A stretch of DNA of 64,000 bases from Eledone cirrhosa (lineage: Eukaryota): assembly GCA_964016885.1 (NCBI GenBank), contig OZ024740.1:283278001-283342000 (forward strand), written 5' to 3'. The position numbers and the translations under genes were made by a program. The notes below the pieces were generated by a model. The model searched no databases, was not told where the DNA came from, and saw nothing but the letters and a program-made list of their open reading frames with translations. The first letter of the stretch is position 1. Every line of letters begins with the position of its first letter. Positions 15,513 through 58,629 of the stretch are shown here, one piece after another.

Positions 15513-15569
<57 letters not shown>

Positions 15570-15571
<2 letters not shown>

Positions 15572-15917
15572 TAAGAATATTTTCGAAACAGCGAGTGGGT
15601 TTGAAATTATTATAAATGTAAGCTATCGCCGTATTTTGACTAAAGAAATTAAAGAAATTATTTAGCCTGATGGTGGGGTTAAGACCCCTCGGAGAAATGG
15701 AAAAAGATGAGTATTGACGTACATGGGAATAACCCGGGTGATGTGTTGGTGTAAATGGTAGCACAGTGGTCCGGATAACCAAAGATGTGGGTTCGACTCC
15801 CATGTACGTCAATACTCATCTTTTTCCATTTCTCCGAGGGTTCTTAACCCCACTATCAGGCTAAATAATTTCTTTAATTTCTTTAGTCAAAATACGGCGA
15901 TAGCTAACATTTCTAAT
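15570..15917. mobile_element. Asymmetric inverted-repeat element in (TA)n with a tRNA-like cloverleaf at its centre
   Basis: 15609-15728 and 15798-15917 are near-perfect reverse complements; the left arm has an extra 40-bp tail; (TA)n on both sides. Confidence 0.85.
15740..15811 (+). tRNA. tRNA-like cloverleaf (repeat-derived, probably not a decoding tRNA)
   Basis: Acceptor GATGTGT/GTACGTC, D arm GTGT-AAATGGTA-GCAC, anticodon arm GTGGT-CCGGATA-ACCAA, T arm GTGGG-TTCGACT-CCCAT; A and B boxes present; lacks U33 and purine 37. Diverged relatives at 35182-35297 (-) and 51098-51175 (+). Confidence 0.6.
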
Positions 15918-16717
15918 ATATATATATATATAGATATATATAAAATTAAGGGACGAATCTTATAGAATAAAATGGACAAACCTTTCAGCGTTTCTTCACT
16001 CACGTGCAGATAATTAGATAATTTTAGTATGTATTATGTAATTTGGCGATGAACCGCGTCGTCAGCGTAATGGAAAGTTCCGTATGTCGTACTGGGGTTA
16101 ATATGATCTATTAATTTCGTAAAGATTATGCCCCTCCATTGGCTGGACACAAGTGAATGTAGTAGTAGTCCTCCACGCGGTTATTGAGCCAGGCCTGACC
16201 ATTTACATGGAAAACACGTTGGCATTGATTCAGATTGAAAAAAATGGCCATGTCAGAAGCACTAAACCAGGGTGCTTCCATATAAAAAAAGGCAGGGTAG
16301 CAAACAATAAATACATGCAATTAGAACAAAGAGTGAGGAAGTTCAACTTACAATTTAAATGTAATTTAGTCCCCTGGGAATTAATGATTTTGTCTTTCAT
16401 CCTTACGGGGTCGATAAAATAAAGTACCAGTAATGCACTGGGTAATTGCTGGCCTTGTGCCTAACGTAGAAACAATATTATTAACGGACGAAGTTTATCG
16501 AATAGAATGGACACAACTTCGACCGTTTCCTTACTCACTCAATAATCTACATACATATACATACATACACACAGAGATACATACTTAAATACCTTTATAC
16601 ATACACAAGCATACACGCACACATTCACGCACACACACACATACATACACATGCGCACGCACACACGTGCACACACACACACACATATATGTATATACAG
16701 TATATATATTTGTATAT

Positions 16718-17276: not shown

Positions 17277-17866
17277 GGGGGGTGGATTAGCAGAGTCGTT
17301 TGAGGGTCGGACAACATGATTTGTGGTTTTTAGTTACGTTTCTTTACGTTTCCAGTTCAAATCCAACCAAGGTTAGCTTTACCTTTCATCCTTACGGGGT
17401 CGATAAAATAAAGTACCAGTTATGCACTGGGGTAGATTTAATTGACTTTCCCCTTCCCGAAAATTATTGACCGTGTGCCTAAATCAGTGGATTGGCAGTA
17501 TCGGTAGAGGGTCGGACGCCATGCTTTGCAGCATAGTTACGTCCCTTTACGGACTGAGTTCAAATCCCGCTGAGGTTAACTTTGCCTTTCATCCTTACGG
17601 GGTCGATAAAATAAAGTACCAGTAATGCACTGGGTAATTTGCTGGCCTTGTGCCTAAAGTAGAAACAATTATTATGGCGGTGAATTGACAGTATTGGTAG
17701 AGGGTCGGACGCCATGCTTTGACGCATAGAGTTACGGCCCTTGCCATTCTGAGTTCAAATCCCGCCGAGGTTAACTTTGCCTTTCATCCTTACGGGGTTG
17801 ATAAAATAAAGTACCAGTAATACAATGGGTAATTGCTGGCATTGTGCCTAACGGAGAAACTATTAT
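17277..17866 (+). mobile_element. Tandem trimer of the SINE
   Basis: Units about 17277-17485, 17487-17673 and 17676-17866; the whole array is bracketed by CTATTATTATGTT(A/G)AGG. Confidence 0.9.
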
Positions 17867-18534
17867 TATGTTGAGGTTATTAACATATGAGACATTAGAA
17901 ATAATGAGGATAGTTAATATAATATTCACATGCTCCCGTAATATTCATCACAGCGATGGTGTTGGCTGCTTTTTTAAAAACCCTTGGTCAACCATGATTG
18001 GGAAGACCTATGGTAAACGACGTCCCTTTCCTGAATATCTAACAATTCTATTGTAACGTGCATCGTAGATCTCTATATTCTGAGACAATATTGCAGGATT
18101 TCAATTTGAATTATTTTTATAGGAGAGCAATATACTTTTTATATAATCGAATCTGAGGGTGGTGGAGAGTTATCAGAAGATCGGGTGGATTTGGCTTCGG
18201 TTCACTGCTCTCTGAATTTAAATCCCACCAAGAACAATTTTGCCTTTCATCTATTCAAAGTCGGTAAACACGTACCAATCGAGTACTGGGATCGATTCTT
18301 CCTGTATATCTCTTTCTCACTTCCATTCTCAAATTCTCTATTCCTTTCTAGAAGAAATCTGCTGTATTCTAACCTGGAGAGGAGATGGGCTTCACCAAGT
18401 TCAAAAATGCCCTAAAACACCCGCATGTCAATACTACGCCATATCACTCCCCCAGGCGTTATATGCATAATCGAATCTGAATATAGTCTGTAATGTAAGA
18501 GGTTTGAATACATTTTAAGTTCGAAATTCTAGAC

Positions 18535-29759: not shown

Positions 29760-32700
29760 TGATACATAAACTTTAACATATAAATACAACGTTGTTATAT
29801 TATATTACATTCGTAAAGGAATATACTAAGTAACGGTTCTTTTTGTTCTCGATTCAAACGATTCAAGAACAACGTTTAAAACACAGTTGTAGAATTAAAA
29901 ACTAACTGAAAAGAAATATTACCCAAGCTGTGAATAACTTTAAATTTGATTCTGACAGAACTTTGTCGTAACTTTTAAAGAAGATCATCGACTATTTAAA
30001 AAAAAATAAATACAAAATATTAGTGAATAGACGAACTCATCATGGCAAAAAGTACAAGTCTCCTTCGACCAAATCGCAATTACAACCGTTGTATACAGTG
30101 GAGCTACGAGCTTAACAAAGAATTATATGAAGCATACAAACAATCTGAACCCCAAAAGTTCGGTTTTATGCAAAGGCTAAACACTTTATGGAACTCCAAA
30201 CACCCAGAATTAGACTTTTCTCCAAAGCATCTAAATGAACAGGCAAAACGTATCATTAGATGTAAATTGATACATCTATCGGAATTGAGTGATACTACAA
30301 ATACAGCCCTTGTAGACAACCACCCCTCCTCCACTGACAGACAAAGAGAATGGCCAGCTAAATCTAACAGTGAACAGCTCACCAACAATTTTGCTGAAAT
30401 CCATCCCACTTCCACTGAAGAACAGCGAGAAAGGTCAGCTGACTCTAGTAGTAATTGTCACCACATCAACAACGAGGCTGCAATTCATGACTCTACTGAA
30501 CAAACAGAGCACCAAAAACTTGTGGGCACCCTACAAGTGATATGGAACGATATGTTTCAAGAAATACACAGCCTTAATGTGAGTGACAGACCATACAACA
30601 CTAGAGTCAGTAAAGAACCCACTAAATTGGAATAGGAAGCGGTGAACGAAATAGCTGGCAATTATCTGAAGGCTATACGATCTAAAGGTGTAGAAACGAC
30701 ATTTGAAACGCTCAATGTTTTGTTATATGTTTCAGCTGTCACATTGCTATCATATAACACACATCTAAAACCACGCAATCAAGATACAAACAGAAAGCCT
30801 GAACCAGCGTGGATGCGAAATTTAAAAACCAAAATTTTGTCCCTGAGACGAAGTATCTCACACATCGCAGTCGTTATGAAATGCAACATAGAGAGCAACT
30901 TCACACGACACCAGGAAGACCTAAAGAAAAAGTTAGAGAGACGATTTGGAGATACCAAATTTAAAACTTTGAACTCCAAATTACACCAGTTGAAACAACA
31001 ACTCACAGCTACAACAGAAAGACTAAAATATAAGTCAACAGCACATAAACGACAAGAGCTAAATAGATTGTTTGCCAGAGATCCTAAATCAGTTTATCGC
31101 AGCTTAGGTGGCAAAAGCTCAATCCCTGTAAACGACACCCCTTCAAAAGAACAGGTTGAGAACTACTGGAGATCTGTATGGGAAACGGATGACGGATTCA
31201 ACAGACAAGCTAATTGGCTAAAACAACTGGAACAGGACTACTGCCAACATGTCCAGACAAAACAATATGACATAGATGGGTCAATACTGGAAACAGCTCT
31301 ACAGAAAATATCGAATAGGAAATCGCCAGGCCCAGACCTCATTACAGGATACTGGTTGAAGAATTTCACTTTTTATCGGCAAGATCTCATACGGCTGTTT
31401 ACAGAAACCATTAAGGGCACACAAGAACTGCCCAGATGGTTATCAACTGCCACTACTCTCCTCATTCCCAAAAATAGCCAAACCACCCTTGCTAAAAATT
31501 ACCGTCCAATTGCCTGCCAAAGCATCATGTATAAATTATATACTGGGTGCCTTAACCTGTTCTTACAGGATCACTGTGCTACCAACAACATCATAACACC
31601 TGAGCAAGCTGGTGGAAAGAGGGAGGTGTGGGGTTGCATAGATCACCTACTAACTAACAAAATGATTCAGGAAAAAACAACAAAGAATCGCAGACTCATG
31701 ACTGTCGTGTGGCTGGACTATCAAAAAGCATTTGATAGTGTACCTCATGGGTGGATTATTAAGGCTTTACAGTTAGCTAAAGTCCCACAACCATTGGTAG
31801 CTGCTGTTGAACGCCTGACCAAGAACTGGTACACCAATTTGATCCTTAGAGGTGAGAAGGAGCAGGTTAAGACTGATAGGATACATTACCAGAAGGGCAT
31901 CTTTCAGGGTGATAGCTTGTCAGTACTACTCTTCGTTCTCTCACTGAATCCACTATCTTACCTACCCAGGAAACAAGGTGGACAAAGAAGAGGGCCCAGA
32001 AGTATCTCCCATCTTTTCTTTGTTGATGACCTGAAGTTGTATGGGCCAAATATCAATGACATCAAGAAACAATTGGACCTCATTACACAATTTTCAACCG
32101 ACATCAAAATGAAATTTGGTGAGTCCAAGTGTGCATATTTGGCAGTAAAACGTGGAAGAGCTGTGCCCTCCTCTAGAAATCTAGAGATGAACGGCCTGAC
32201 AATACAACCCCTGCAGTCAGGTGACAACTACAGATATCTTGGACAGGATGAGAATGTCAGATATGATGGACCCATAAATAAGGAGAGAACCAGAACTGAA
32301 TACCTCAGAAGAGTAAAAAAAATATGGTCATCAGAACTGTCAGCATACAACAAATACATTGCCCACAATACCTATGCTGTGCCAATTCTAACGCCAACAT
32401 TTGGCCTACTGAACTGGTCATTGCAAGAACTAAGTGAGTTGGATGTTAGAACCCGAAAACTTCTCAGTGTTACTGGGAACTTTAACATCAATGGTGATGT
32501 GGATAGGCTATACTTCTCACGCAAGGAAGGTGGCCGGGGTCTAAAATCAATATTAACCACATATGAGACCCGGATAGTAACACTGAAGCAACACCTTCAA
32601 CAGAGGAAAAAGGTTGGCGACCATCTTGCTCAGGTTTATGAGCATGAAAAAAGAAATATCATTAGAATAGCGACTGATCTGGAGGAGAGATATGGAATAA

Positions 32701-33634
32701 AGCCTGATATAAATTTCTCACCCAGAGAAATCGGAAGATCCTATTCAATGTTCAAACAAGAAAAAAAAATTGACCAATTTACAGAGAAAGTTGTGCATGG
32801 ATACTTGAGGCGTAAAACACAGACCATAGAGGGGATAAACCACTCAAAAAGCCTGGCATGGAGTTCCGACATGTTTATGACATCACACCTTGAGGGATAT
32901 CTCTATGCAATACAGGAACAAGAACTCCCTACCAAATATCTGCTGCACAAAAGAGGAGGGTCAGAAGCTGACAATAAATGTAGGCTATGTAAAACAAAGA
33001 TCGAGGATGTAAGCCACATTGTTGCCAGCTGCGAAAGAATGTCATCTCGCTACTACCTCCCCATGAGACACGATGGGATAGCTAGAACCATCTGGAACGC
33101 ACTTCGGAAAACAAAATTAACAACAAACGAGGAAGAATATATTGAGACAGATGGCACTAAGGAATATTGGTGGAACCTGAAAATAAAAACTGCCACCAAA
33201 TTATAGCACAACCGGCCTGATATTGTTGTTTGGGACCACACATTGAAAACGTGTTCTGTTGTGGAGATCAGCTGCCCACTTGATGTAAACGTTGTCAGAA
33301 AAATACAGGAGAAGGAGGACATCTACGGACCATTGATGAGGAGCTTACAAATCCAGTATCCAAGCTACACCTTTAGCTTCATACCCATCATTATTGGAGC
33401 TACGGGTTATATACCAACCCGCTTGGACCAAAGTATGACTGAACTTGGATTTGCGGACAAAAAGCGCAGCTCCCTAATTCATAGTCTACAAATGGCTGCG
33501 ATAGCTGGCACCTTCAAAATTTGCAAAACATTCTTGCGATTCAAGGGATGACAATTTCTTTTCTTTTACAACCTTGCCACCAGGAAGGTGGCCGGTCAAA
33601 AAAATATACTCGAAATTAAGAGAAAGAGATATAA
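29760..33634 (+). mobile_element. R4/Dong-like RLE non-LTR retrotransposon, near full length, inserted in (TACA)n
   Basis: Single-frame RT+RLE coding region; short 3'UTR with GCCACC-AGGAA-GGTGGC hairpin; (TACA)n on both sides (about 29624-29757 and 33635-33668). Boundaries approximate. Confidence 0.88.
30042..33551 (+). pseudogene. RT-RLE polyprotein of the R4-like element, interrupted by two in-frame TAG codons
   Basis: ORF-track pieces 30042-30635, 30642-33206 and 33243-33551 are all in one frame; stops at 30633-35 and 33204-06. RT motifs WLDYQKAFDSVPH, GIFQGDSLS, HLFFVDDLKLY; CCHC finger CRLC..EDVSHIVASC; RHD; RLE motifs NRPDIVVWD, VVEISCP, K..Y. Confidence 0.9.
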
Positions 33635-33962: not shown

Positions 33963-35311
33963 CTATTAGCCTCGATAAATCTGTAGTTATGTATCAACCA
34001 GCCTCAACTTCTCCTTATATAAAACAATTCATTTACTATGTAGGACAAATTCTCGAAATAGTTCGAGGTTCTCATATTTGAGAAGTCAAATTAACCTCTA
34101 TTTCACATTAAATGATGAAATAGTCTCCTGTATCAAAAAGCTATCGATATTTTCGCATGTCTTTGGGTATGTCTTTGGAAGCAGAAGGGAATTAGAAAAG
34201 AAACAAACTTTACAATATATCATACATGTTTCTATTTATTCTGTTATATCCCCGTAAGATCAGGGGTGTCTATTGCAGCCACATTAAACTCTTCAAACGG
34301 TTTCACCAATGTTTCCTGCATGAAATCCATCATGTTCACTAGAGTATACACATCACTGACATTGAAATATTACAAAACACTTGTACAGTCAGCATTAAAT
34401 TTCATATCCACAAGCACTGACACCGATGGTTATGTCTTTTTGTTAGATTTTACGACAGCAAAATTCCAATACAAAAGCATTTTAACGAGTTAACATCTGG
34501 TGAAAACCCACAACACAAACATATTTGCCTTTTAGGTATATGACCAAACATGCCTGTCAAATGCTGGTTGTAAAGTCACCAAGGTAAATATGCAGAAATG
34601 CCACAGGTTGAATATGACCGATCACTTGCTGCCAATTTGCCATAAGGTATGGGGAGAGAATTTTCGAATAACTGTGAAGTTGCAAGACACACCAAAACAT
34701 ATAATCATGGTACGTGTTTGACTGAATAGCCAAATACTCTCCTAAATATATATTAAAGACACCCCAGAACTCGTAATCAACGATAGAAACCTATTATGTC
34801 AGGAAGGGTCTTACACGTCTAGCGAGTCGAAGGCCATCATGTATATAAGAATATATGTATGTATGTTTTAAGGTTCTATTATTATATAACTTTTCACCAA
34901 TAGAGTGTGAGCCGGTTGCTAACATAGAGACATTTTCTTTCATTGGAATTTAGACAATATCAACTACGTAAATACTTATGTATGTCAGTATGTGTTTGCG
35001 CGTGTTTGTGTCTGTGGGGGTGTGCAGGTATGGGTATTTTTGCATGTGTGGATCTGTATGTTTTTGGCTATATATGTACACGTGCATATGTTTCTAAAAT
35101 TTATATATATGTATATGCAGATATTACATGCTGAATTTCTGAAATGTTTTACATATTTTTACCACCAAAAAGTCTAATAATAGGGGGGCATATAATCCCA
35201 CTGAACGGGAAAAGATGGGGATTAGCGCACATGGGAGTTGAACCCATACTCTTGTTTGCTGGGCAAGTACCCTGCCATTTGGCCAACGAACCCACCCATT
35301 ATAAGAATATA

Positions 35312-35900: not shown

Positions 35901-36567
35901 GAGGTTTGTCAGAAAGGTTCCAGGACAGATGCCACAAAAGATTTATTTCAAACCCAAATTTCACATTGAGTTTTCTCTTTCAAAGTAATCCCCCTGAAGT
36001 ATGTAACTCTAATCTTGGCTCTCTGCAGCGATCAAATTTTTTTCTTCATAATTTTATATACATGTCCTCTGTTTCAGGTCGTCAAGCAATGAGCACAGAG
36101 CAACGAACAAACTTGAAAACTCCCTTAGAAGCAAGCACTGGGATTGCTGCAGCAAGTGTATGGAGATGAGACGATGTCCCGCTCACGTATTTTTGAGTGG
36201 TGCAAGAGGTTTATAGAAGGACGCCAGGACGTGGAAGATGACCCCAGGAGCGGAAGGCCCTCAACAACCAGGACTGAGGTCAACGTTGAGCGCGTCAGGC
36301 AGATGGTGCGTAGATATCGTCGGCTGACTGTTCGACTGATGGCAAATGAGCTGGGCATGAATCGGGACAGCGTCTGGAAGATTCTCACTGAAGATTTGGA
36401 CATGCGGAAAGTCTGCGCGAAGATGGTGCCAAAACTGCTGAACGATGACCAGAAGGGTCGACGCATGCAAGTGTGCCAGGACATCCTCGAGCGTCTTGAA
36501 ACCGAACCAGACTTGCTAGGGACAGTCATCACCGGTGATGAGTCATGGATCTTCGAGTACGACCAGG
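35900..36567 (+). mobile_element. Truncated mariner transposon (left TIR + N-terminal half of transposase)
   Basis: TA|CGAGGTTTGTCAGAAAGGT.. terminus after (TA)n; MSTEQRTNLK at 36089, frameshift, then VYGDETMSRSRIFEWCKRF..DDPRSGRPS..KVCAKMVPKLL..VITGDESWIFEYD. Ends after the first catalytic D. Confidence 0.9.
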
Positions 36568-37951
36568 AGGGGACACATACAATAACATCCATATCTACAC
36601 ATGCATGCATACATACATATCTACCTAGTTGATGTTGTGTAAATTCCAATGAGAGAGTCTTTTGTCTATGTTAGAAACTGACTCTCTCTCTATTGGTAAA
36701 ACTTTGTGAAATTATAAAACCAGGAGAACATACATACATACGGACGTACGTGCCTATATACATATGTGTACGCAAACACATAAATATCTTCGAAAGTTGT
36801 TTTCAACATGGTCGTTGAATGTTAGAAATACTAGTGACATCACACTTTATTTTCGTAAAGTGACACTGAATAATGTAACACTCGATATACGTTTCTAATG
36901 ACAGGGTGGTCGTAGCCAAAATGATCCTGATCAAAGAAATTTCATACATATCTGGAGCACTTTAAATCAAATACTTTAAACATGGAACCTACTTTATATA
37001 TTTAATGCAGGAATATATAATAGAATAATATCTGTGTAAAAGACACTATCTTCAAGATAGAGTGTTCGCACAAGTAAATATTGGTTTTAATTTAAGTATA
37101 AGGCCAAAAGTCTTTAAGAAAGGGCAAAGGGTGTTTAAATCAACCCTAGTAATTAAATGGTATTGTATTTTATCGAATCCATAAGGAGGAATTTGAAAGT
37201 TGAGCTCGGAAGGGATTTTAACTCAGATCATTAATAAATATTAAATGGAAATTCACATGTGTAATTTTGATGATTTTTTTCAATGAATATTATTCCATCA
37301 AGACTTCTCTCTCTTGCAAAAGAAACTAAACAACTAATAGGAATGAAGTCGAATCTCGAAATAGAATCCTTTAAAACAAACATAAGTATATTAGTTGTGT
37401 ATTAGCATGCAACGTAATATAACAAAGGTGAGATTCGTGATTGAAATCTCGTTTCCTTAAAAACAATATTCAAACACAAGATGAGATAAATGCAAATATG
37501 ATCGGATTTAAGGAAATAATAATAATAAAACACCAACAACAACAACAGCAATATATTTTTAGTATATTCTTGTAAATGTTCGAAAATAGGTAGTGGCTTA
37601 GTTTTGAGGACAAATAATATGGTATAGTTCATTAAAGGGAAATCGTTGACTTGAAACCAGGAAGTGTGTTTCTCCAGAGGCTATTCTTCAATACAGGAAT
37701 CATTTTTTTTTTTTTTTTTTTTGCTTCTGCACGAGAATACTGTCTTCAAAACAGTAAACATAGCGTTGACTTTTATATCAACGTGAAGCAACAAGAAATA
37801 TAATTGAATTATATTTTTTCTTACTGTCTGGATATGAGAAACGAAAGAAAAGCAGAGGGGGAATATGAAATCTCTCTACAAATCAGATAAGACTGGAATC
37901 AAACAACAGAACTTACATTTTATACCAGACGAAATAAACAGCTACGAAAAC

Positions 37952-38020
<69 letters not shown>

Positions 38021-38021
<1 letters not shown>

Positions 38022-39140
38022 CTTAGATAGGACTAGACATAAGATAGGGAAAGCCACCTCATGTTACGACAACCAGAGATACCAGGGTGTCCTGTTTGTG
38101 GACGCTACCCCTGGAGGGAAATTAGCTAACCAGTGTAGAAAGGCCCTGAGAAAGACCCACTTAAAGATTAAGGTGGTAGAAAAGCCAGGAACCACCATAA
38201 AATCCTTGATCAGCAAAAAACTACCCGTTTAAGAAAACCCACTGTACTAATAGAAAATGTATTATATGTAAAGTAAACCCCCGGATAAACTGTAAAACTA
38301 GAAACGTAGTCTATAGCATAAGATGTACAGAGGGTACCTGCAGAAACATGACAACAACATAGATAGGCGAGACAGCTCGTAGCATAGGTGAAAAGATAGA
38401 CCAACACTGGGGGGAACTAAAAGGACGCAAAAACGGTTCAGTACTATACGAAGAGGCCAGACAACAACACGACGGTAACATAGACAACACAGAAATTAGA
38501 ATAATATCTAAACATAGAAATGACCCAGCAGATAGGCAAATCAGAGAGGCCAGCGAAATAGAACTTAGAGGGCCAAGGCTAAACAGAAAAAAATGAATGG
38601 AATAACAACAACACCCAAACAAACAACACTGACCTAAGAAAGTATAAATAAATAAATAAATAAATACACAAGCATAATAACAACAAACACATATAAACAC
38701 ACACTAGTAAACTAAGATAGAATACAATAACCAATACACAGTCACCAAACACGAACACACATCAAACAAAACACTATACACACACGCAAACGCATGCGCA
38801 GAGAAGACAAAAAAATAAATAAATAAATAAATAAATAAACAGACTAAATAAAGATGGCGTAGGCATACAATACAACGGGAGAAAACATAATAGCACCACT
38901 GACGATCTTGCAGATGTGCAACGAAAGAACTTTGTTAGACTATATATATGTGTTTGTGTCTATATTGTATCTGTATTTTTTACCGTTGGTCAGTCCATGG
39001 TAACATTGAGGACCGAATAAATTAAATTAACCGATATAAAAGACACAGAAGCGAAAACCAACCAAACAGTGAGTGTGTTCTGTTATTAATTGTGGCAATA
39101 TTATTACACAAATATGAACCCCCCCCCCCCAAGTATAACT
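38021..39140 (+). mobile_element. 5'-truncated Penelope-like element (family B): GIY-YIG remnant, 3'UTR and hammerhead-like motif
   Basis: Manual translation: VLFVDATPGGKLA..KIKVVEKPG / CTNRKCIIC..CKTRNVVYSIRC...C..(*)IGETARS..H..DRQIREA..LN, with a frameshift and a TAG at the Y of YIG. CTGACGA..TTGCA-GATG-TGCAA..GAAA at 38899-38926. Flanked by (TA)n. Confidence 0.88.
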
Positions 39141-40780: not shown

Positions 40781-41219
40781 ATGTCTGTAGGTGGGTGGGT
40801 GGGTATGTGTGTGTGTGTGGGGGGGGGGGTATGTGTAGGTATGTATGTATACTAACCTACAATTATATCTCAGAGGTTAAAATTCACCATGGAAAAAGTT
40901 GTTTAGCACTGTCGTAAAAGGCAATATTCATACATGAATTTCATTTACATACACATGCACATATAGTTATACACACACACACATTATTATTATTATTATT
41001 ATTATTGAATGCCATGGTTGACGGAGGCTCGGCTCTGTAAGTATAGTAATTTTTAACCGTTAAAACAATTGTAAATTGTTTAAAACTTGAACCAAATTGT
41101 TGATAAAGACACCCTCCTCCTCGTGAGAGGGGTCTTTCTGTCCGTTATTTGGCCCTTCGGGGTTAAATAACCAGTTATTGGGGTTTTGTACCCAATATTC
41201 ATTTTAAACAAAAAACAAC

Positions 41220-43316
41220 ATGGCTACGAAAAAGAAATTTCATACGTCACTCCCACTCATTCCGTCTTCTTCTTTCTCAATCATCACTACAGCAGAGAGA
41301 AGATTGTCTCTCTCCCTCCCTTCTTTAAATGTGTCTCTCTCCCTCCCTTCTCTTTCGCAAGTGACGAAAGAAAAGAAAAGTCTCGTGCAAAGCGTGCAAG
41401 GTTTCTCCACGACGACGACGACAGCCACGAAACAGGTGTGCGGGAAATACGAAAACCCAGTTCATTCGTCTGACGTCAGGAATAATAGCAGTAGCAGCCG
41501 TAATAACAACAGCAACAGTGACAATGAAAACAACAGTAGCAGCCGCAACAGCATCACCAGCAGCATAAACAACAACAGCATTAGCAGCAGCAACACCAAC
41601 AACAACCACAGCAACAGCGGCGGAGGCAGTAGTCGTAGTACCTGCAGCAACAACAAAAGTACCAGCAGCTCTGACGACAACAACAACAGCAGAGAAAAAC
41701 CAATCTCATTTGCAGGTATTGCGAAAAACTTGGAAACAATCCTCATAACAAATGAGGAATTAGAGGAAGCGAAGAAGATGGTGACAAAGAACGGACACCG
41801 AGCAATCTGCAAGGCAGCGGAAAAATTTTTCGAAACCCAAGAGCACTGTACGGTCACGTACCGTACAGTAAGTACAAAATCCCGTAGGGTGGAAAGAGCC
41901 ACAGAGGCCCAAATACAAAAAGCCTTGGGGTCTGTGTGGCAGCGGAAAACGCACATCACCCGAGGCAAAAAATATGCCACCGTAGACGTACTTTTTGCCA
42001 CACCCCAGGAGGCAAAGGCCCAATCAGTAGTGACCCTAAGGAGCGAGGAAATGGTGTTGGTGCCCTCCTACTGCGGGCAAAAAATTGTGAGGGTCAAACT
42101 GACCCACGTCCCCCCCGGAATGACCCCTTCTTGGCTGGCCGTGTCTGTCCTCGTCGGAATCGAGGACAAAACAACTGTACTGCAAGTACAGAAAAAAGTA
42201 AGAGAAGATTGGGTCGGCTCCTCCATTGAGATGCTAATCCAAACCAACCAGGAGTGCATCGAAGCTATCCCGGATGTGATAGACTTCGATAACGGCACTC
42301 AACTGCCCATAAGTGTTGAGGGCAAACGCCCGAAATGCTTTCGCTGTGGATCGAAGACTCACCTCAGCGCCTTCTGCAACGAGAAGACCCTGAGAAAGGA
42401 GAAAACCCCCCTCCTTCCGAATCCGGCTCCACGGCTACCAGCAACAGGACAAGCGGCAACCAGGAACGATAGGCCCGTGGCACCCATACCCACTCCACGG
42501 AAATCAAAAACAGCAGCAGCAGTGGAAATACTAACAACAACAACAGCAATACCAAATGCAGCTGCAACAGAGACTCCTGTGCAAACATCACCAACAACAA
42601 CAAGTGAAGGAGTGGAGCTGGTACCCCTCCCCGACCTCACAGAATCAGACATGGAGTGTGAGGTGGGAGAGAGATGGCAAAAGGTCGTAAGAAGGCACAA
42701 ACGCAGAAGCAGCGCATCGTCGCCTTTGAAAAGGGAGGAAAGAAATGAGAAAAGGGTAAAGTCTACTGCAAAGAGACCCACAGCAGCAACAACACCAACA
42801 CCATCACCACCCACACTAGCACCACCATCACCACCGGCGACAACCCCACCGCCAACAACACCTTCAACACCACCACCACAAGCACCAACATCGCAAACAC
42901 AACAACAAAACACACACACCCAGCAACAACGACAAGAAAATAGCAGAACCACACCCCACCCCCAGAAAAACAAATGCACGGCAATAAATACACACAACAA
43001 GAAACTAATGACTTACATAATTGAACACACAGACATTTCACAACAGGACTACATAATACCAGCACCAATCAAAACGCCAACTAACATAAGACTGCTAAAA
43101 ATAGCACAGAAACAATACACAAACATTAAAACGAAATTCCCCAACGCAGTTGGTGATTTCAGGGACCTAGGAGGAACCATCAATCGAAGAGTATACTCAG
43201 ACATTCTCTTAGAAGAGCCGACGACCAGCCGAAGGGACGATTCAACGGTCCCTTCACCAGACGATCAAGTGAAAAGGGATGTAAAAACCATCCCTCCTCT
43301 ACCAAAAGTACGGTAA
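41220..43316 (+). CDS. LINE ORF1 (gag-like nucleic-acid-binding protein with CCHC zinc knuckle)
   Basis: 698 aa open frame; CFRCGSKTHLSAFC = C-X2-C-X4-H-X4-C knuckle after an RRM-like region; S/N- and P/T-rich low-complexity stretches; lies just upstream of ORF2. Confidence 0.88.
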   Translation: MATKKKFHTSLPLIPSSSFSIITTAERRLSLSLPSLNVSLSLPSLSQVTKEKKSLVQSVQGFSTTTTTATKQVCGKYENPVHSSDVRNNSSSSRNNNSNSDNENNSSSRNSITSSINNNSISSSNTNNNHSNSGGGSSRSTCSNNKSTSSSDDNNNSREKPISFAGIAKNLETILITNEELEEAKKMVTKNGHRAICKAAEKFFETQEHCTVTYRTVSTKSRRVERATEAQIQKALGSVWQRKTHITRGKKYATVDVLFATPQEAKAQSVVTLRSEEMVLVPSYCGQKIVRVKLTHVPPGMTPSWLAVSVLVGIEDKTTVLQVQKKVREDWVGSSIEMLIQTNQECIEAIPDVIDFDNGTQLPISVEGKRPKCFRCGSKTHLSAFCNEKTLRKEKTPLLPNPAPRLPATGQAATRNDRPVAPIPTPRKSKTAAAVEILTTTTAIPNAAATETPVQTSPTTTSEGVELVPLPDLTESDMECEVGERWQKVVRRHKRRSSASSPLKREERNEKRVKSTAKRPTAATTPTPSPPTLAPPSPPATTPPPTTPSTPPPQAPTSQTQQQNTHTQQQRQENSRTTPHPQKNKCTAINTHNKKLMTYIIEHTDISQQDYIIPAPIKTPTNIRLLKIAQKQYTNIKTKFPNAVGDFRDLGGTINRRVYSDILLEEPTTSRRDDSTVPSPDDQVKRDVKTIPPLPKVR

Positions 43317-43351
43317 GTGGTCTTTCCCATCTTTTCCACTCTATTTTAAAC

Positions 43352-46300
43352 ATGACCTCACTCAGAATAGGCAGCATAAATGCGCGTGGCTTGGGGTCGT
43401 CATGGAAGCAGGGTCACCTGCTCAACGACCTCAGGTCACTAAACATAGATGTAGTGGCCATCAGCGAGACCAGAATCTCCGAAGCACGGGCCTTCGTACC
43501 GATCTTCGGCGGCTACGATGTGTACGCATCTCCCAGCCGTCCTGGATCGGGTGGAGGAGTTGCTGTGCTTTTTCGGAGAGGTTTGGATCTCGCCATACGG
43601 GCCATCTTCCTGGACCCAGAGGGTAAGCTGGTGGTGCTGGACGTGACCAGCGGAGACGGGCAAGCTTTCAGGCTAGTGGCCGTCTATGCCCCGACAGGAG
43701 CAGGGCGGCCTGATTTCTTCCGGCGTCTGGAGACCTTTCTTGGAACGTCCCGCTCTTTAGTGTTAGTGGGCGACTGGAACGGGATCTTAGATGCACGCTG
43801 GGACTGTGTGGGATTAGCGGATAGGGGTGGAGGGTGCAAGAGCCTCACCAACCTGCTCAGGCGTTTTGAACTGTCTGGCAGGTACCGATTGGATTTCCCG
43901 AATGTGCCAATGTGGACTTGGACAAACCGCATAGGGTCATCCAGATCATATCTAGATAGAGTATTTTGTAGGGAAATAGATAGGTCTAGCATAGGCTGTC
44001 CACAATTCAAGATAGTCAGCTACACGGACCACAAATTCGTGATCTGTGTGCTTGACTTAGATAGACTTCATAGACGAGGACCCGGCTACTGGAAGCTAAA
44101 CGCGTCCTTACCAGCGCGCAAGGCCTACAGAGACCGGATTAGCGAACTAGTTAAGCGGGCGTTGACGGGGGCCATCGTCAACAACAAGTGGTGGTTTGCT
44201 CTGAAAAGAGCGATTAGAATAGAATCGATTAGGTTTAGTAAGGCTTTAGCAATAGAGAAAAATAGAGCAGAGGGAGAACTAGTTAGAAAATTAGACGAGG
44301 CGCTTAGCAAAGGCATTGCGACCGACGTGCTTGTGGCGAAATTGGCCCTTGACCAATTCTTCAATGCAAAGCACGAAGGCTGCGTTGTCAGAGCTAGGGT
44401 GCGTGCTCTCAGACACGAGGGGACGAAAGCCTTTCAATGGGCCCGAGTGGCGGAGGCGCGTCGTGGCAACAAAGCCACGATCCGGTCTTTGGTGGACCAC
44501 GACGGGCGCATGCTACTCGATCCCGGGCAAATGTGTGAAGCTTTTCAGCGACACTTCGCTCAGCTGTTCGGGGGCAGCGGTGGGCCGGGTAGAGGGATGG
44601 ACTTTAGTGTCTACCTCGACGGACTGCCGCGGCTCTCGGCCACTGAGGCGAAGTGTTGCGAAAAGCCGATAACAGCCGCTGAAGTAAGGGAGGCAATGAC
44701 TGGCTGCACAAGGGGTAAATCGCCTGGTTTGGATGGTCTGCCCTATGAACTTTACGTACAGATGCCAGACTTGTTCGGAGGCCTCTTGGCGGACGTCTAC
44801 TGCAACTGGCAACAGAACGGGAGAATTCCCAGTTCTGTGAGCCGAGGAGCGGTGGCACTGCTGAGAAAGGATCCGAACAAGGGGGATGACATAGACAATT
44901 TCCGGCCCATAACTCTGCTAAACACAGAGTTTAAGATTTTGGCCAAGGTGCTAGCAAAGAGGTTGGCGCTTGTCGTTGGTGGTCTGGTGGGAGAGGCGCA
45001 GACATGCGCCATTCCCGACAGATCCATCCACGACAACCTCCACCTCATGCGATACATCGTAGAGAGGGTAGCTAGGGAACCTGGCACGGGTGGGTCCTTG
45101 ATCAATTTAGATCAGTCGAAAGCTTTCGATAGGGTCGACCATCGTTACCTAGCGGCAGTCCTGAGGGCGGCTGGCTTTGGGCCCGTCTTCAGAGGCTGGA
45201 TCGCTGCCATGCACAGCGACATCTGCTCTGTGGTGAGAGTGAACGGTCACCTGTCGGAACCGTTCAACATCATGCGCTCGGTCCGCCAAGGATGTCCCCT
45301 CTCGTCCCTCTTGTACGTATTGACTCTCGAGCCATTACTGCACAAACTGGAGACGTTGAGGGGGGTCCCGCGCGAACTAGGATGCGGAAGATCCGTATCA
45401 GCATATGCGGACGATGTCACCGTAGTGGTGTCGAACGCCAAACACATCGAGGCGATCGGCACTACACTAAGAGAATACGAAGCGGTGACAGGAGCAATGA
45501 TCAACCAGGAAAAGTCAGTGGGCCTGCAGCTCGGCACCTGGAGAGGCAGGTCCATGCCGTCCAACAGCGTCGTCGGACGCTGGACGGACGGACCGGTTAA
45601 ATTGCTAGGGGTCTGGTTCGGTCCGGACCTCCAGACGGACAAAAACTGGGACGAGGTGACGAGCAGGGTGGCTTCTCTCACCCAGAAATGGGCCGAGAGG
45701 AAGCTATCCCTGAAAGGTCGAGCGGAGGTGGCTAACGCGTACATCGCGTCCGTCATCTGCTACCGCCTGACCGTCGTACCTTGTCCTAAGCCTCGCCTGA
45801 CTGTGCTGGAGCGTTTGCTCTTTCGCTTTTTGTGGAAGGGACGCGCTCCGATGGTCAGGCGGTCCATCTGTTGTCAACACCCGCTACGTGGAGGGCTGGG
45901 CATGCCGTGGCTGATGATGCGCAGGCACGCGCTCAGGCTACGACATCTCCACCTCTTCCTCGACGGTGATCAGGTGTGGTCGCCGTTTGCTAGACGCGTG
46001 TTTCCCCAGCTCGTTTCCTTGACGGAGCTGCAGTCCTGGGTCAAGCGAAGACCGAGAGGGAGCGCCTGGAGACTGGAATGTCTTCAGGCGCTCACAGCCC
46101 TCGACCAATCGGGCAATGTGATCGGTGGAAACTCCACCTCGGCGTTCTATAGAGGATTAGTGGAGGGGAAGAGCGACGACGTACTTGGGGAAACTCTAGG
46201 CGTCGACGAAAATCAACTAGCCAATCTCTTCGGAAGAACTTTCGGGCCAGGGCCTATGGACAACTTCCAGAAATCTCTGGCCTGGCAGTGCTACCGAGGA

Positions 46301-46771
46301 GCCTTGCCAGTTCGGGATAAACTCTACAGGCATGGAGGTGCCGTCAGCCGGGCATGTCCGAGATGCGCGCAGGGCGACGAAACCGTCCTGCACGCACTCG
46401 TCCAGTGTCCGAAAATTGCTGACTTGTGGGTTTATGTCGAACACCTGCTGTCGCGTTTAGGACGGATCCGGCTATCATCTGAGTCCATCGTGAGGATTGC
46501 CCCGCCCTCCTCCTTTAGCCGGGAAGGGCAGGCAGTTTTTATCTGCCTGGTGGCCATGGCGAAAGAGATAGTATGGTGGACACGTTTGAAAGGGCTGAAG
46601 ACGAGCACTTACCTCTTCGGTGATGCTCTGATTGACTTTTTCAAATTTCATTTGAAAAGGAAAATCAGAGTAGAGAGGGAAGTGCTCTCTTCCCAGCATT
46701 TTGTTGAAAGATGGGTGAGAGAAGCAAGAATGGCCCGAGTGAATGGGCCTACTCTGAGCATATATCTGTAA
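43352..46771 (+). CDS. LINE ORF2: APE endonuclease + reverse transcriptase + C-terminal zinc finger
   Basis: 1139 aa. APE motifs GSINARGL, ISETR, VYAP, GDWN, YLDR, TDH. RT motifs KSPGLDGLP, FRPITLLNTEFKILAK, LDQSKAFDRVDH, VRQGCPLS, YADD. C-terminal CPRC..ETVLHALVQC. The YWKLN motif is typical of L1/Tx1. Confidence 0.96.
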   Translation: MTSLRIGSINARGLGSSWKQGHLLNDLRSLNIDVVAISETRISEARAFVPIFGGYDVYASPSRPGSGGGVAVLFRRGLDLAIRAIFLDPEGKLVVLDVTSGDGQAFRLVAVYAPTGAGRPDFFRRLETFLGTSRSLVLVGDWNGILDARWDCVGLADRGGGCKSLTNLLRRFELSGRYRLDFPNVPMWTWTNRIGSSRSYLDRVFCREIDRSSIGCPQFKIVSYTDHKFVICVLDLDRLHRRGPGYWKLNASLPARKAYRDRISELVKRALTGAIVNNKWWFALKRAIRIESIRFSKALAIEKNRAEGELVRKLDEALSKGIATDVLVAKLALDQFFNAKHEGCVVRARVRALRHEGTKAFQWARVAEARRGNKATIRSLVDHDGRMLLDPGQMCEAFQRHFAQLFGGSGGPGRGMDFSVYLDGLPRLSATEAKCCEKPITAAEVREAMTGCTRGKSPGLDGLPYELYVQMPDLFGGLLADVYCNWQQNGRIPSSVSRGAVALLRKDPNKGDDIDNFRPITLLNTEFKILAKVLAKRLALVVGGLVGEAQTCAIPDRSIHDNLHLMRYIVERVAREPGTGGSLINLDQSKAFDRVDHRYLAAVLRAAGFGPVFRGWIAAMHSDICSVVRVNGHLSEPFNIMRSVRQGCPLSSLLYVLTLEPLLHKLETLRGVPRELGCGRSVSAYADDVTVVVSNAKHIEAIGTTLREYEAVTGAMINQEKSVGLQLGTWRGRSMPSNSVVGRWTDGPVKLLGVWFGPDLQTDKNWDEVTSRVASLTQKWAERKLSLKGRAEVANAYIASVICYRLTVVPCPKPRLTVLERLLFRFLWKGRAPMVRRSICCQHPLRGGLGMPWLMMRRHALRLRHLHLFLDGDQVWSPFARRVFPQLVSLTELQSWVKRRPRGSAWRLECLQALTALDQSGNVIGGNSTSAFYRGLVEGKSDDVLGETLGVDENQLANLFGRTFGPGPMDNFQKSLAWQCYRGALPVRDKLYRHGGAVSRACPRCAQGDETVLHALVQCPKIADLWVYVEHLLSRLGRIRLSSESIVRIAPPSSFSREGQAVFICLVAMAKEIVWWTRLKGLKTSTYLFGDALIDFFKFHLKRKIRVEREVLSSQHFVERWVREARMARVNGPTLSIYL

Positions 46772-48339: not shown

Positions 48340-49489
48340 ATATATATATGGGATAACAAATTATCGTTATAGGTAATCCAGTTATAAGGTGTGAGTACTC
48401 TGAATTTTTAACGTTCAGCGTTGTTTGATTCAACAAGAGGTTTCCTTAGTTAGGTGGCGAGTTCCCAGGAATTCCTATGCAGGTTAATCTTGGAGTAATA
48501 ATAGTGAAAGAGTGAAGAATAACATGGTCAACAGTACAAAAAGGGTTTTATTTACAGTTTTAACAATTGTTTCATTGATTAGTATGTCTAAAGGTTGCTA
48601 TTCACTCGAAGTTGTGTCACTGAACCTTAAATACAGTGTGTGCTTAATCAAATCATCGGAATAACTGACAAATTTACACTCGGTATTTGTATTTATACTA
48701 AAGAGAATTCAAATAACATCAATAATAAAGAAAGAAAAAGAAAAAAATAATAATAAAGAAGTTAAAATGAAGATGATAAAAAAATAAGTAAAAAATATAT
48801 ACGTGAAAAAAAATATATCAACATAATATGATTGTTGAAAATAGTGGTGGTGGTGGAGGGGGGTGTTAAAGTTATAGTGTTGTGTAAGTATAAAGATGTG
48901 ATGAGGGTAGGAATATTATTAATATGAAAATAAATATTAAATATATACATACGTATTATACGTATTGGTTAAATCGCAGAGGGTTAGAGTAGGAAGAAAG
49001 AATATAATGATAAATAACATATAACAGATAAATTAATAAATTAGAAGTTAGGTTAGAGGTTAAGAGATACAGGATAGGATACAAGGGAAGAGGTGAAGAA
49101 AGAAAGGTTAGGAGGTCTATGATGTTGATTTCGTGATTAGTTGGTCTGTTGACAGTTAATAATAATGGTTTGGTATGTAGTTATTATAATAGACTCTGGG
49201 TGGTTCAGCTTGAATTATGGGATTGTTGGATCGAATCATGTTGGTTTGAAATTTGCGAATTTAGTAGCTGCTTTGTGCCTACAGAAAATTGATCGTTCTA
49301 TTTTGCTGTTAAGCAGCATTTTGTCATACTTTAAAATATGGAACAGCTCCATATTGCAAAGTCTGCAGTGGGACATTTCATTTCTGTAGGACTTTGCTCC
49401 CGATAATTTCGACCAGCTAATCACGTATTCTTGCTTTGTATCCTTAAGCTGCCAGATTTTATTAGCCATGTTATTCTTCACTCTTTCAC

Positions 49490-49491
<2 letters not shown>
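48340..49491 (-). mobile_element. 5'-truncated Penelope-like element: GIY-YIG C-terminus, 3'UTR, long-stem-II hammerhead and inverted 5' stub
   Basis: ORF 49236-49481: IWQLKD..YVISW...AKSY....CRLCNME..ILK...LLNSK.E....CRH, a typical PLE GIY-YIG C-terminus. Hammerhead-like motif at 48555-48667. 49466-49491 is an inverted copy of 48511-48537. Confidence 0.85.
48555..48667 (-). ncRNA. Hammerhead-like motif (CCGATGA core, extended stem II)
   Basis: CAGTTATT / CCGATGA / T-TTGATTA...TAATCAA-T / GAAA / CAATTG / T-T / AAAACTG, in the 3' region of a GIY-YIG PLE. Confidence 0.62.
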
Positions 49492-49574
<83 letters not shown>

Positions 49575-49699
49575 TATTTTCCGATGAAACGCTGAGGCTC
49601 AATTTTAACAACTTCATAACTGCTAAGTCCTCCTGTGTTAATTTCGATGTTGACCTTTTCTTATTTACATGCATTACATAGATACGTACATACATATAT

Positions 49700-51090
49700 A
49701 TGCAAGAATATATAGAGAAATGTTCACATGGTTCCGACGTTCTTGAAAGATTTAGGAATGTAGTTTGGCCAGGATAAATTTTTTTATATGATTGTAAAGC
49801 GAGGAAAAGCTACAAGCCAATTTAGCAACATCCCTACCAATGGTCTGACGTTTGTACCGGTATCTGATAACGACTGCTACAGATACTTAAGGTATAGATG
49901 AAAATATATCCTTTCGTAGTAGTTGTAATAAGGAACGAGTAACCAGGGAATATAACATCCGAAAAAGAAGAATATAGCATCTTCAATTCTCTGCGCACAA
50001 TAAACCAGTAGCTTACAAAATGTTTGCTGTGCTTCTGCTGACACCAACATTTAGGCAACTTCACTGGGCGCTAGATGAGATCCGAGACGACATTGAGGCT
50101 TAAATCTACCCGAAATTTAAACATGTAGGCAGAGTTTTATCAACAACACAAACAGAATTTGATCATCACATCCTATCCCCAGATAATGTCTACGCATCAC
50201 CAAGAGTAGAAGATTATCTATAGAACAAATCTGTCAACATGAGTCAGATAACATTATGACAGTTGGGAAGGAGCTCCCTGAGAAATAATCCGTGTATGAT
50301 TATGAAAAACTAACACCCAGGGAAATAGCACAGCAATACCGCAATTAATCTATCGATGGAAAACTGCATGCTTATCAGCAAAACATCACGCATGGCTACG
50401 TTGCCAGAAAGGTTCAAAATGAGAGTAATATAGATACGCAAAGCAGTCTATATTGGACCAATAACCGGTATATTGACTTTCACATTGACGGATATGCTTT
50501 TGTACTCCAGGACCAGGGGAAAAATAAAATACCTAATGGACAAATGAGATTGGGTTGAAGACAAAACAACTAGATGTGACAACAGATGTAAACTGCAGAA
50601 TAAACATCAAGGATGTCACCCACATTATAAAATGCTGCCTATTGTCATCACGATACTATCTTTTTATCAGCCAAAAGACTATACAACGCAATCCGTGGAA
50701 CAGATAACCCTGAGAATATACATATGAAATGTTACAATGATGCGTAGGGTCATATGTATACCTAATATGAAAGACTACTGTTGGAATGTTCTACTCAAAA
50801 CCCTAATAAATTGCAAGCATAACATAACAGACAAGAAAATCGTGATATTAGGCTGAGAAAAGAAAGCATGTACAGTAATGGAATTCAGCTGCCAAACAGT
50901 GGCAAAAACGAGAACAACTATGCTGAACTAATGAGGAATCTGCAAATACTCCACCCTGAGTATATCTTTAGATTTGCAGCTGTGATCTTTGGGGCTCTGG
51001 GACATATTCCTAACTACCTCATTACAAATCCAGAGAGGCTCGGCTTCACAGAACTGGATAGGGCACAGCTAGTTAGGAAGCTGTAAGTAG
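49700..51090 (+). mobile_element. Decayed 5'-truncated relative of the R4-like element
   Basis: Frameshifted remnants match the 30-33 kb element: LSAHNKPVAYKMFAVLLLTPTF vs LSAYNKYIAHNTYAVPILTPTF, NRCKL, DVTHII, SSRYYL; ORF 50868-51086 (NYAELMRNLQILHPEYIFRF..IFGALGHIP) vs IYGPLMRSLQIQYPSYTFSF..IIGATGYIP. Preceded by TACA-like repeats. Confidence 0.8.
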
Positions 51091-51184
51091 AGTCCAGAGG
51101 TATGGGTTCAACTCCCATGTGCGCTGATGCCCATTTTTTCCCGTTCAGTGGGATTATATGCCCAGCTATTATTAGACCATATCC

Positions 51185-51902: not shown

Positions 51903-52510
51903 GAATTTGTTTTGCGAGGTTTTTTATATGAAATCGTGTGTCGAAACAAATATTGTTATACTTGGGGAGGGTCATATTGTTGTAATAATATTGACAGAAA
52001 TAATAACAGAACACACTCACTGTTTGGTTGGTTTTCGCTTCTGTATCTTTTATATCTCCATAGTTAATTTATTCGGTTCTCAATGTTTATCATTGACTGA
52101 CCAACGGTCAAAAATACAGATATAAATACATATACAGTCTAACAAAGTTCTTTCGTTGCACATCTGCAACATCATCAGTGGTACTATTATGTTTCCTCCT
52201 GTTGTATTCTATGTCTACGCCATTTTTATTTTATCTGTTTATTTATTTATTTATTTTTGTCTTCTCTGTGCATGCGTTTGCGTGTGTGTATAGTATTTGG
52301 TGTGTGTGTTCGTGTTTGGGTGACTGTGTATTGGTTATTGTATTCTATCTTAGTTTACTAGTGTGTGTTTATATCTGTTTGTTGTTATTGTGCTTGTGTA
52401 TATATTTATTTATTTATATTTCTCTTAAGTCAGTATTGTTTGTTTGGATGTTATTGTTATTCCATTCATTTTTTCTGTTTAGCTTTGGCTTTCTAAGCTC
52501 CATTTCGCTT
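51903..52510 (-). mobile_element. PLE family B 3' fragment with hammerhead-like motif
   Basis: Reverse-complement copy of about 38565-39140 plus a 3' extension; minus strand reads CTGATGA-T-GTTGCA-GATG-TGCAAC-GAAA at 52151-52178. Confidence 0.85.
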
Positions 52511-56309: not shown

Positions 56310-56880
56310 ATCTACAGTAAAATAGAACATGGACCTCACTGCAGCTGATGCCCTCAATCCACAATTGTAGTACCGTACTACAGCGCCAACAGTTTTCTGT
56401 TTATTTTCCGGTGTCGGTGGAGAAAGAACCTTAAGACAGTTGATAAACTTAATATGCATCACTAGTGATCCTGAAATAGGAACATAACATTTTATTCACG
56501 TGGCAAGGCATGAGCATCACTTGAACTGATTTAGTCGATCTGCAACTTTAGTGGAAGCTCAAAACTGTTGATGAACTTAATCTATAATACTAGCATTTTT
56601 GAAACACCATGAATTTCACTCTAACGAACACGCGTAATCTATAGAACTTGTGAAACTTTACAACAAATTATTCGCTCATATTTTCTTGCAACGATATAAA
56701 ACTTTATAGCATCACAATTCTTTTATTCTTTCCTGAGTATGAGTCGAGGAGCTATTTTCAGTTCTTGATTTACTTATACATTTGTTATTCATACAGTACA
56801 TTTCAAATTTGGATGAACACCTTCATTTGATATTACATCTCTAATAAACTATAAGTATTTGTGCATTTGCGGTAATACTA

Positions 56881-58577: not shown

Positions 58578-58629
<52 letters not shown>

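Follow-up and report, generated by a model that had tools for sequence, protein, structure and literature searches.

A tRNA-bearing repeat of Eledone cirrhosa, very probably mobilised by Penelope-like machinery and possibly circularised through host tRNA splicing

We analysed a stretch of 64,000 nucleotides from Eledone cirrhosa (GenBank assembly GCA_964016885.1, contig OZ024740.1, positions 283,278,001 to 283,342,000 of the forward strand; hereafter the window), and in it an insertion at 15570-15917 that carries a tRNA-like sequence and lies between two (TA)n tracts (the parts are collected in Table 1). As the original prediction had it, the insertion is flanked by (TA)n on both sides and has inverted arms of about 120 bp: 15608-15728 and 15798-15918 are 121 nt each and 97% complementary, and the left arm overshoots the paired region by a tail of about 35 nt. 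The tRNA cloverleaf with A and B boxes read at 15740-15811 was recovered by Rfam (RF00005, 42.4 bits, cut-off 29), as the sole gathering-level Rfam match in the window, and by ARAGORN (15739-15812). Its anticodon loop, CCGGAUA, is non-canonical at C33 and U37, again as predicted. Plain folding of the tRNA region fails to recover the cloverleaf (z = -0.31).

The insertion is made of one repeat unit placed head to head: the right arm covers unit positions -4 to 179 and the left arm positions 59 to 216. The cloverleaf, taken before for a centre between two arms, is present but lies inside the right arm, and a 6-nt filler joins the arms. A further linker of about 55 nt belongs to the unit and is found in tandem copies, not in the window copy. 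The unit does lack a hammerhead ribozyme, as had been noticed: neither strand has a CUGANGA..GAAA motif, no ribozyme family matched at E<=5 in Rfam searches of three loci, and an antisense candidate in the body (CUGAU..GAAA) was ruled out for having no CUGANGA core. The architecture had been likened to that of hammerhead families in the window. An inverted, (TA)n-flanked insertion at 58579-59822 does have a CUGANGA..CGAAA motif, at 59517, but Rfam makes no call on it; the copies at 38870-38960 and 52120-52210 carry the same kind of hammerhead-like motif, also uncalled.

Searching the 3.0-Gb genome with the element gave 2266 first-look candidates, of which 40 were scored, and a 32-nt pattern of the element has 806 exact genome matches. 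Mean identity to a natural copy is 95%. The family is real, young and present in high copy number, and the window copy is no one-off. Its unit is non-coding, 259-272 nt long, and consists of tRNA, trailer, body and linker. Copies chosen by their 3' tail alone show that the sequence goes on beyond the tail, where the linker leads to another tRNA; the unit is thus circularly permuted, a monomer of 271 nt. The original prediction missed this tandem monomer, as well as the meaning of the anticodon loop. Subfamily A1 has units of 271-272 nt and subfamily A2 units of 259-261 nt (about 82% identical to A1). An older family B, about 62% identical to A, also occurs in inverted and tandem forms, and A1, A2 and B can be aligned across the entire monomer, linker included. 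The two diverged relatives proposed on the minus and plus strands of the window are genuine and belong to family B (Table 1). Related sequence was also present in contigs of four sequencing runs with four other organism labels; in the richest run (412 contigs, 234 of them below 90%), the loop of the CUGG reference shows no other letter at 15% or more.

To describe how the unit inserts, we used 37 distinct insertions, those behind 40 full matches picked by tail alone, and a pool of 154 distinct insertions from several differently biased searches. Among the 37, 22 are inverted head to head and 15 have a single orientation, and 12 contain tandem units joined through the linker; in the subfamily with a CGCG loop, 29 of 46 are inverted. 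The 3' ends fall at two sites about 37 nt apart (positions 179-183 and 215-223 in A1; about 157-172 and 204-208 in A2), and 85 of 91 inverted pairs combine one distal with one proximal end. A (TA)3 lies within 14 nt of a 3' end in 144 of the 154 insertions. None of the 154 has A6, a poly(A) or an A-rich tail, and target-site duplications (TSDs) are not in excess: non-simple 8-mer direct repeats occur in 15 of the 154 against 12.0 +/- 3.1 in shuffled flanks, a count blind to duplications composed purely of TA repeats. Arm lengths and centres vary in every copy, and the arms of an insertion overlap by more than 100 nt. No fetched tail-matching locus runs on into a long interspersed nuclear element (LINE), as judged with no LINE library for comparison.

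Penelope-like elements (PLEs) are described with a tail of 30-40 nt, inversion, partial tandems and a bias to (TA)n (PMC8557442); the tail is explained as the stretch between two internal starts of the reverse transcriptase (RT), which extends both target strands (PMC11167929). Because the two-site 3' ends, inversions, tandems and (TA)n tracts match that description, we hold it very probable, from the insertion patterns, that PLE machinery mobilises the unit. The original prediction had offered, as one of two options, an element like a short interspersed nuclear element (SINE), transcribed by RNA polymerase III (Pol III) and moved by Penelope-type machinery instead of a LINE; the signature of the 154 insertions strongly supports it, and other copies, with (TA)n and inverted arms and with neither a TSD excess nor a tail repeat, are no ordinary SINE insertions.

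A standard tRNA SINE that depends on a LINE, with inversions from twin priming or later rearrangement, would have explained the tRNA head with its A and B boxes and the 5' truncations, and LINE frames are present in the window. Twin priming, however, gives non-overlapping parts, which the arm overlap contradicts, and neither the two internal 3' ends nor the head-to-tail units with a linker belong to such an element, any more than the missing poly(A) and TSD excess do; this reading is largely refuted, and we give it very little credence. Even less credible is capture of a tRNA by a miniature inverted-repeat transposable element (MITE) or by another DNA transposon with long terminal inverted repeats. 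Inverted arms with TA on either side would suit such an element, but the arm lengths and centres that differ in every copy, the 15 of 37 insertions with no inverted arm and the direct tandems do not, and we rejected it on the variable 5' truncation. A separate, very common SINE-like family in the window (17354-17870, 56880-57116 and 62484-62844) is likewise found as tandems and enclosed by inverted arms, so one may ask whether PLE machinery serves it too.

The second option of the original prediction, a PLE terminal repeat, was not upheld: no copy seen runs into an RT or GIY-YIG frame, and no homology of the unit was found to 50 GIY-YIG loci, taken from 10595 candidate GIY-YIG places in the genome. 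Neither monomer has an nhmmer match to these 50 at E<=1, and no matching tRNA stands at their 3' ends. A young Neptune-type PLE family at L250 (G000:C1:145867400-145877399), L251, L255, L258, L259 and L261, with a 938-aa open stretch and near-identical copies, shares no sequence with the unit and is a candidate partner. Two other PLE families (L253, L263, L265 and L260) have a hammerhead-like CUGAAGA..GAAA 350-410 nt behind their GIY-YIG frames.

The tRNA part is conserved as a structure. Between A and B, changes on both sides are seen at pairs 2 and 5 of the acceptor stem and at pair 29-41 of the anticodon stem, the exceptions being a U4-U mismatch in B and a G27-A43 mismatch in A; overall stem pairing is 83.6% against 75.6% in shuffled alignments, a figure that is weak alone and comes from an alignment fitted to the structure. 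Linker and trailer are predicted to pair over about 16 bp. The 5' ends gather near the tRNA: among 30 fetched copies (of 41) with a perfect tRNA, 15 start 0-6 nt upstream of it, with a mode at 4 nt, as do 17 of 68 arms of a positional sample and 11 of 62 arms in the CGCG subfamily. Because these ends cluster 4 nt upstream of the tRNA, they suggest a Pol III start there. A further 17 of the 49 arms at risk stop at positions 53-70, just 3' of the T-loop, which fits an RT blocked at the T-arm or at m1A58, or else joining at short palindromes there.

One might instead suppose that RNase P (and Z) frees the PLE-mobilised tRNA mimic from multimeric read-through RNA, the units then being rejoined or jumped across. 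The cloverleaf is conserved, and a minority of 5' ends do lie at tRNA +1 (5-6 of 15 in the perfect-tRNA set, and 3 at position 0 in the CGCG set). The modal 5' end, however, lies 4 nt upstream of +1, the predicted fold has the trailer paired, the covariation at loop positions 33/34 described below is left unexplained, and no indel scar marks the unit junction (-10 to +3) in 65-72 arms. RNase P leaves 5'-P and 3'-OH ends, which are not substrates of RtcB. We therefore think this explanation improbable. The idea that a tRNA mimic replaces the ribozyme was probably right in spirit; it is the proposed processing by RNase P/Z over which the evidence favours tRNA splicing.

In copies longer than a unit, a second -4 site lies one unit further up, where only 2 of 26 arms stop. 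First-site stops are more frequent, both in the perfect-tRNA copies (15 of 30, p=0.001) and in a hand count of the A1 arms of the positional sample (12 of 37, p=0.03). Neighbouring units of a tandem share subfamily variants, with 30 of 373 comparisons discordant against 113.6 expected. Because the second -4 site is mostly passed, the junction is scarless and tandem neighbours share variants, two classes of template are likely, to go by the sequence of the copies: a linear one and a homogeneous one without ends.

What could make an endless template is suggested by the anticodon loop. Its positions 32-35 are self-complementary, and adjacent bases 33 and 34 are unable to pair inside a single loop. 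In a tandem dimer, the 5' half of tRNA 1 is predicted to be able to pair with the 3' half of tRNA 2, so that an 'intron' at 37/38 of precisely one unit remains; the loops would then pair as C32-G35', 33-34', 34-33' and G35-C32' between two 3-nt bulges. This predicted geometry equals the rule given for metazoan tRNA splicing, which asks for a C-G proximal pair whose C lies 6 nt from the exon end, and for a 3' bulge of 3 nt (PMC6614914, PMC10485636). The swapped fold beats two separate cloverleaves by 6-18 kcal/mol in all six natural dimers that are in register; two further dimers, in which indels broke the fixed register, were set aside, and one of these favoured the unswapped fold. Of 13 CCGG dimers, 10 are predicted to form the central helix with P>=0.67, and the single CGCG dimer with P=0.97.

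The self-complementarity was noted, and a different palindrome named as its test, before loop variants were searched; the CGCG subfamily was then found. In the positional sample, which was not selected by loop, 75 of 90 loops are CCGG (33), CUGG (27) or CGCG (15), and none is CCAG; three loci are segmental duplicates, whose removal leaves 12 CGCG. Genome-wide there are 195 double changes at 33/34, and of the 100 listed 96 are CGCG and 4 its CpG-decay forms. Positions 32 and 35 are both changed in only 4 copies, all different and unrelated, and C32 and G35 never change together in a propagated subfamily. In 210 copies, a pool partly selected for perfect tRNAs, C33>T occurs 47 times and G34>A twice, against 4-14 and 3-13 at nine other CpG sites of the same pool; judged by these counts, C33>T is a propagated change and G34>A is not. 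Among the 16 loops, ranked by the strength of the helix between copies, CCGG is first, CGCG second and CUGG fifth. In a midpoint-rooted tree of 66 natural monomers CUGG is basal in both A clades; with CUGG ancestral, the derived CCGG and CGCG are the two best of 15 alternatives, about 1 chance in 105.

The cycle that we propose would begin with the 259-272-nt units, which are observed to end at two 3' sites and whose copies are truncated and stand singly, inverted or in tandem. Pol III would start 4 nt before the tRNA and at times read through the T5 run into the next unit. In the dimer, the tRNA halves are predicted to swap, drawn together by the linker-trailer helix of about 16 bp, and the two anticodon loops to pair through 32-35 into a 3-4-3 bulge-helix-bulge. 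TSEN would cut at 37/38 in both copies, RtcB would close the excised unit without a scar, and the protein of an autonomous PLE would prime internally at the two tail sites, using both target strands. Linear RNAs would yield copies that stop near -4, and circles would yield copies of more than one unit that regenerate tandem masters. On balance we think it probable, as a model, that a tandem dimer is fed in this way to the host tRNA-splicing enzymes and gives a unit-length circular RNA template with no ribozyme; a circle made by splicing is a specific prediction, confirmed in part, and we put some trust in it.

Several observations count against this model. Its RNA steps are predicted from DNA sequence and computed folds, and the unconstrained minimum lies 14-34 kcal/mol below both of the constrained cloverleaf folds. 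The model also requires read-through of the T5 run. In none of the 22 CUGG dimers does P for the central helix exceed 0.29. Family B mostly has CCAG (10 of 31 aligned rows, against 5 CCGG and 4 CUGG), a loop that keeps C32-G35, breaks the middle pairs and ranks 11th of 16. The change to CGCG arose only once in evolution. The yield of tRNA intronic circular RNAs (tricRNAs) in fly and human reporters fell when the helix was fully paired (PMC6614914), the opposite of what a drift to the fully paired CCGG and CGCG would lead one to expect; CUGG gives G-U at positions 2 and 3, like the fly tyrosine reporter of the same source. The contrast between the first and second -4 sites is non-significant when all 68 arms of the positional sample are used (p=0.14). 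Stops are in excess at 35-40 (8 against 8 in 17-34, p=0.03, one reference artefact dropped), but only one of the eight lies exactly at the predicted junction, 38. The link between loop strength and read-through has weakened: a first count of no CGCG stop near the tRNA start in 11 insertions (p=0.005) did not hold in a larger set, where 16 of 67 arms stop at positions -6 to 16, still a smaller share than in CUGG copies (11 of 21, p=0.03). The 50 GIY-YIG loci, of 150 scored, yielded no autonomous partner that shares sequence with the unit.

Self-complementary loops might just as well act in RNA dimerisation, a role that is compatible with splicing and is its main rival. The element would then be PLE-mobilised with no circle: through the loop, two RNAs would dimerise and be loaded together on a dimeric PLE protein, and read-through of long genomic arrays would produce the copies of more than one unit. 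The PAc protein is predicted to be a dimer, and it extends both strands (PMC11167929). Some insertions have arms of different variants; those of the window copy differ at two diagnostic sites, and CGCG and CUGG are mixed in 2 of 19 multi-loop loci. At L341/L402 (G000:C1:136.616 Mb) and L458, both CUGG and CGCG loops occur among the arms or units, so a single insertion can draw on two RNA molecules. There are also arrays of about 10 units (L201 and L339), but long arrays are rare. Inverted arms, moreover, mostly agree (31 of 327 discordant against 101.6 expected), the palindrome at 32-35 lies in the exact register of the splicing motif and not on the anticodon, and a purely linear cycle drops one linker per round, yet families only 62% alike share the linker. 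We regard dimerisation without a circle as unlikely, if less so than cutting by RNase P. The two arrays are the longest tandem runs, which reach about 10 units. At L201 (G000:C4:61009627-61012411) variants are shared in blocks, the mark of later unequal crossover, and we did not use it as evidence of rolling; at L339 the units are much diverged. Both are satellite-like growth after insertion.

If the splicing route is real, the unit would represent a new class of mobile element, and we lean, by a little, to that view: a viroid-like circular RNA replicon, encoding neither protein nor ribozyme, that brings its own Pol III promoter in the form of a tRNA, mimics an intron-containing pre-tRNA with two tandem copies, is circularised by host TSEN/RtcB and is reinserted by a Penelope-type RT. 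It would amount to a mobile tRNA intron carrying its own exons and join Pol III, TSEN/RtcB and PLE reverse transcription in one cycle; it would be the first transposon to parasitise tRNA splicing, within the literature searched, and the same route may serve other PLE partners that lack a hammerhead. Even without a circle, a tRNA-derived element moved by PLEs breaks the rule that pairs SINEs with LINEs, and suggests another partner for some repeats filed as SINEs in such genomes. The use of circular templates by PLEs, and substitutes for the hammerhead, become testable; the natural compensatory variants offer mutants ready for such tests, and circular RNA might be produced from a tandem tRNA designed to circularise itself.

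The metazoan non-LTR retrozymes, reportedly described by Cervera and de la Pena according to a review, are similar in several ways. They too are short non-coding tandem units for which PLE mobilisation has been proposed, and their cDNAs exceed one unit on a circular template, as we propose here (PMC7761336; bioRxiv 10.64898/2026.07.22.740005, in the parts covered). Their cleavage ends (5'-OH and 2',3'-cyclic phosphate) are of the kind that TSEN also makes. Unlike them, the unit lacks a type I hammerhead and carries a tRNA with Pol III boxes, whose anticodon loop is self-complementary, and we found no homology to a pseudo-long terminal repeat (pLTR) among the 50 GIY-YIG loci. With PLEs such as Poseidon PAc, Neptune and Naiad it shares the 30-40-nt tail, the inverted 5'-truncated copy, partial tandems and AT or (TA)n targets, and Naiads also lack a canonical hammerhead (PMC11167929, PMC8557442); in contrast to autonomous PLEs, it has no RT or GIY-YIG frame, is tRNA-derived and is closed on itself by the linker. 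With tricRNAs and intron-containing pre-tRNAs, whose excised intron is circularised by RtcB, it shares a tRNA body for the ruler mechanism and a predicted bulge-helix-bulge at 37/38 with its C-G proximal pair (PMC6614914, PMC10485636). Natural tRNA introns are generally 15-30 nt long and are not retrotransposons (PMC10485636). Unlike tricRNAs, the 'intron' here is the whole mobile unit with a permuted tRNA inside, and the motif needs two tandem copies.

TRNA-derived SINEs have a tRNA head, A and B boxes, high copy number and likely Pol III transcription in common with the unit. Among them are the octopus OR1, OR2 and OK elements, reportedly described by Ohshima and Okada in 1994, which we compared by description only. 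The unit differs from this group in having conserved stems, internal 3' ends and tandem and inverted copies, and neither a TSD nor an A-rich or simple-repeat tail. OR1 and OR2 are classed as CORE-SINEs (PMC4758252, PMC4824008). The TRIMp3 elements Helenus, Ajax and Cassandra likewise put a small-RNA-derived Pol III promoter in a non-autonomous, LINE-independent element and form tandem arrays, but they are long terminal repeat (LTR) elements with a primer-binding site, a polypurine tract and a TSD (PMC10886601), whereas the unit shows PLE integration; their hallmark, two LTRs around an internal part with a TSD, is absent from its insertions. An octopus repeat annotation counts, for recently active insertions, 893 unclassified SINE families and 31 families of PLEs, with no tRNA-bearing PLE-type element listed in the part covered (PMC13282606), and non-autonomous Penelope elements of short length are mentioned elsewhere with nothing on tRNA in that passage (10.1101/596502). 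The literature searched, with Repbase, Dfam, SINEBase, subscription papers and supplements outside its scope, held no tRNA-derived PLE-mobilised element and no transposon using tRNA splicing; a consensus may already be deposited under a SINE label in Repbase or paper supplements.

Table 1. Parts of the insertion and its relatives, in window coordinates
Feature	Position	Strand	Basis or remark
Left (TA)n target tract	15527-15569		sequence
Left arm, 5'-truncated unit copy, positions 59-216	15571-15728	-	ends at distal 3' site; truncated just 3' of T-loop
PLE-type tail, unit positions ~182-216, between both 3' end sites	15571-15605	-	3'-end clusters
6-nt junction filler, equal to unit positions 36-41	15729-15734	+	sequence identity; probably templated
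Leader of 4 nt, most frequent 5' end among non-tandem copies and likely start of Pol III	15736-15739	+	5'-end counts
tRNA-like cloverleaf	15740-15811	+	Rfam, ARAGORN; stems covary between families A and B
A box	15747-15758	+	within cloverleaf
B box	15790-15800	+	within cloverleaf
Anticodon loop	15771-15777	+	predicted splice junction between 15776 and 15777
Self-complementary tetramer 32-35	15771-15774	+	predicted central helix of inter-copy bulge-helix-bulge
Trailer	15812-15830	+	predicted 3' strand of linker-trailer helix
T5 run, candidate leaky Pol III terminator	15821-15825	+	sequence
Right-arm body, ending at proximal 3' site (unit position 179)	15831-15918	+	3'-end clusters
Right (TA)n target tract	15917-15942		sequence
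Family B copy (older relative), tRNA part and trailer	35204-35298	-	ARAGORN, sequence comparison
Family B copy, 5'-truncated	51055-51175	+	homology clear from ~51098

A third family with another palindrome was found neither in 1.05 Mb of collected loci nor in forty additional 10-kb stretches, 38 of them at arbitrary places. One candidate member, at L032:2255-2400, was rejected as single-copy; this tRNA-like remnant, which has a T5 trailer and whose D arm is similar, is perhaps a very old relative. Four pairs of near-identical insertions with shared flanks are segmental or assembly duplicates (G000:C1:211.75/212.22 Mb, 212.50/213.06 Mb and 34.69/35.92 Mb; C28:43.88/44.50 Mb). A commoner tRNA-headed SINE (L146:2800-2920 on the plus strand, L309, L302 and L292) carries behind its head a 14-nt stretch that equals family A tRNA positions -4 to +10, where B differs, and a template switch possibly accounts for it; by eye, the acceptor and anticodon stems of this SINE itself pair poorly.

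Elsewhere in the window, two pieces at 37891-38232 (+) and 49236-49598 (-), neither with a Pfam match, are by their motifs presumably fragments of PLE frames, and we take the piece at 36129-36632 (+) for a mariner-type transposase. Two nearly intact non-LTR retrotransposons lie on the plus strand, one at 30027-33551 with an 856-aa RT frame and one at 41208-46771 with frames of 702 aa and 1204 aa and with endonuclease and RT; their frames are presumably RTE-like and L1/Tx1-like.
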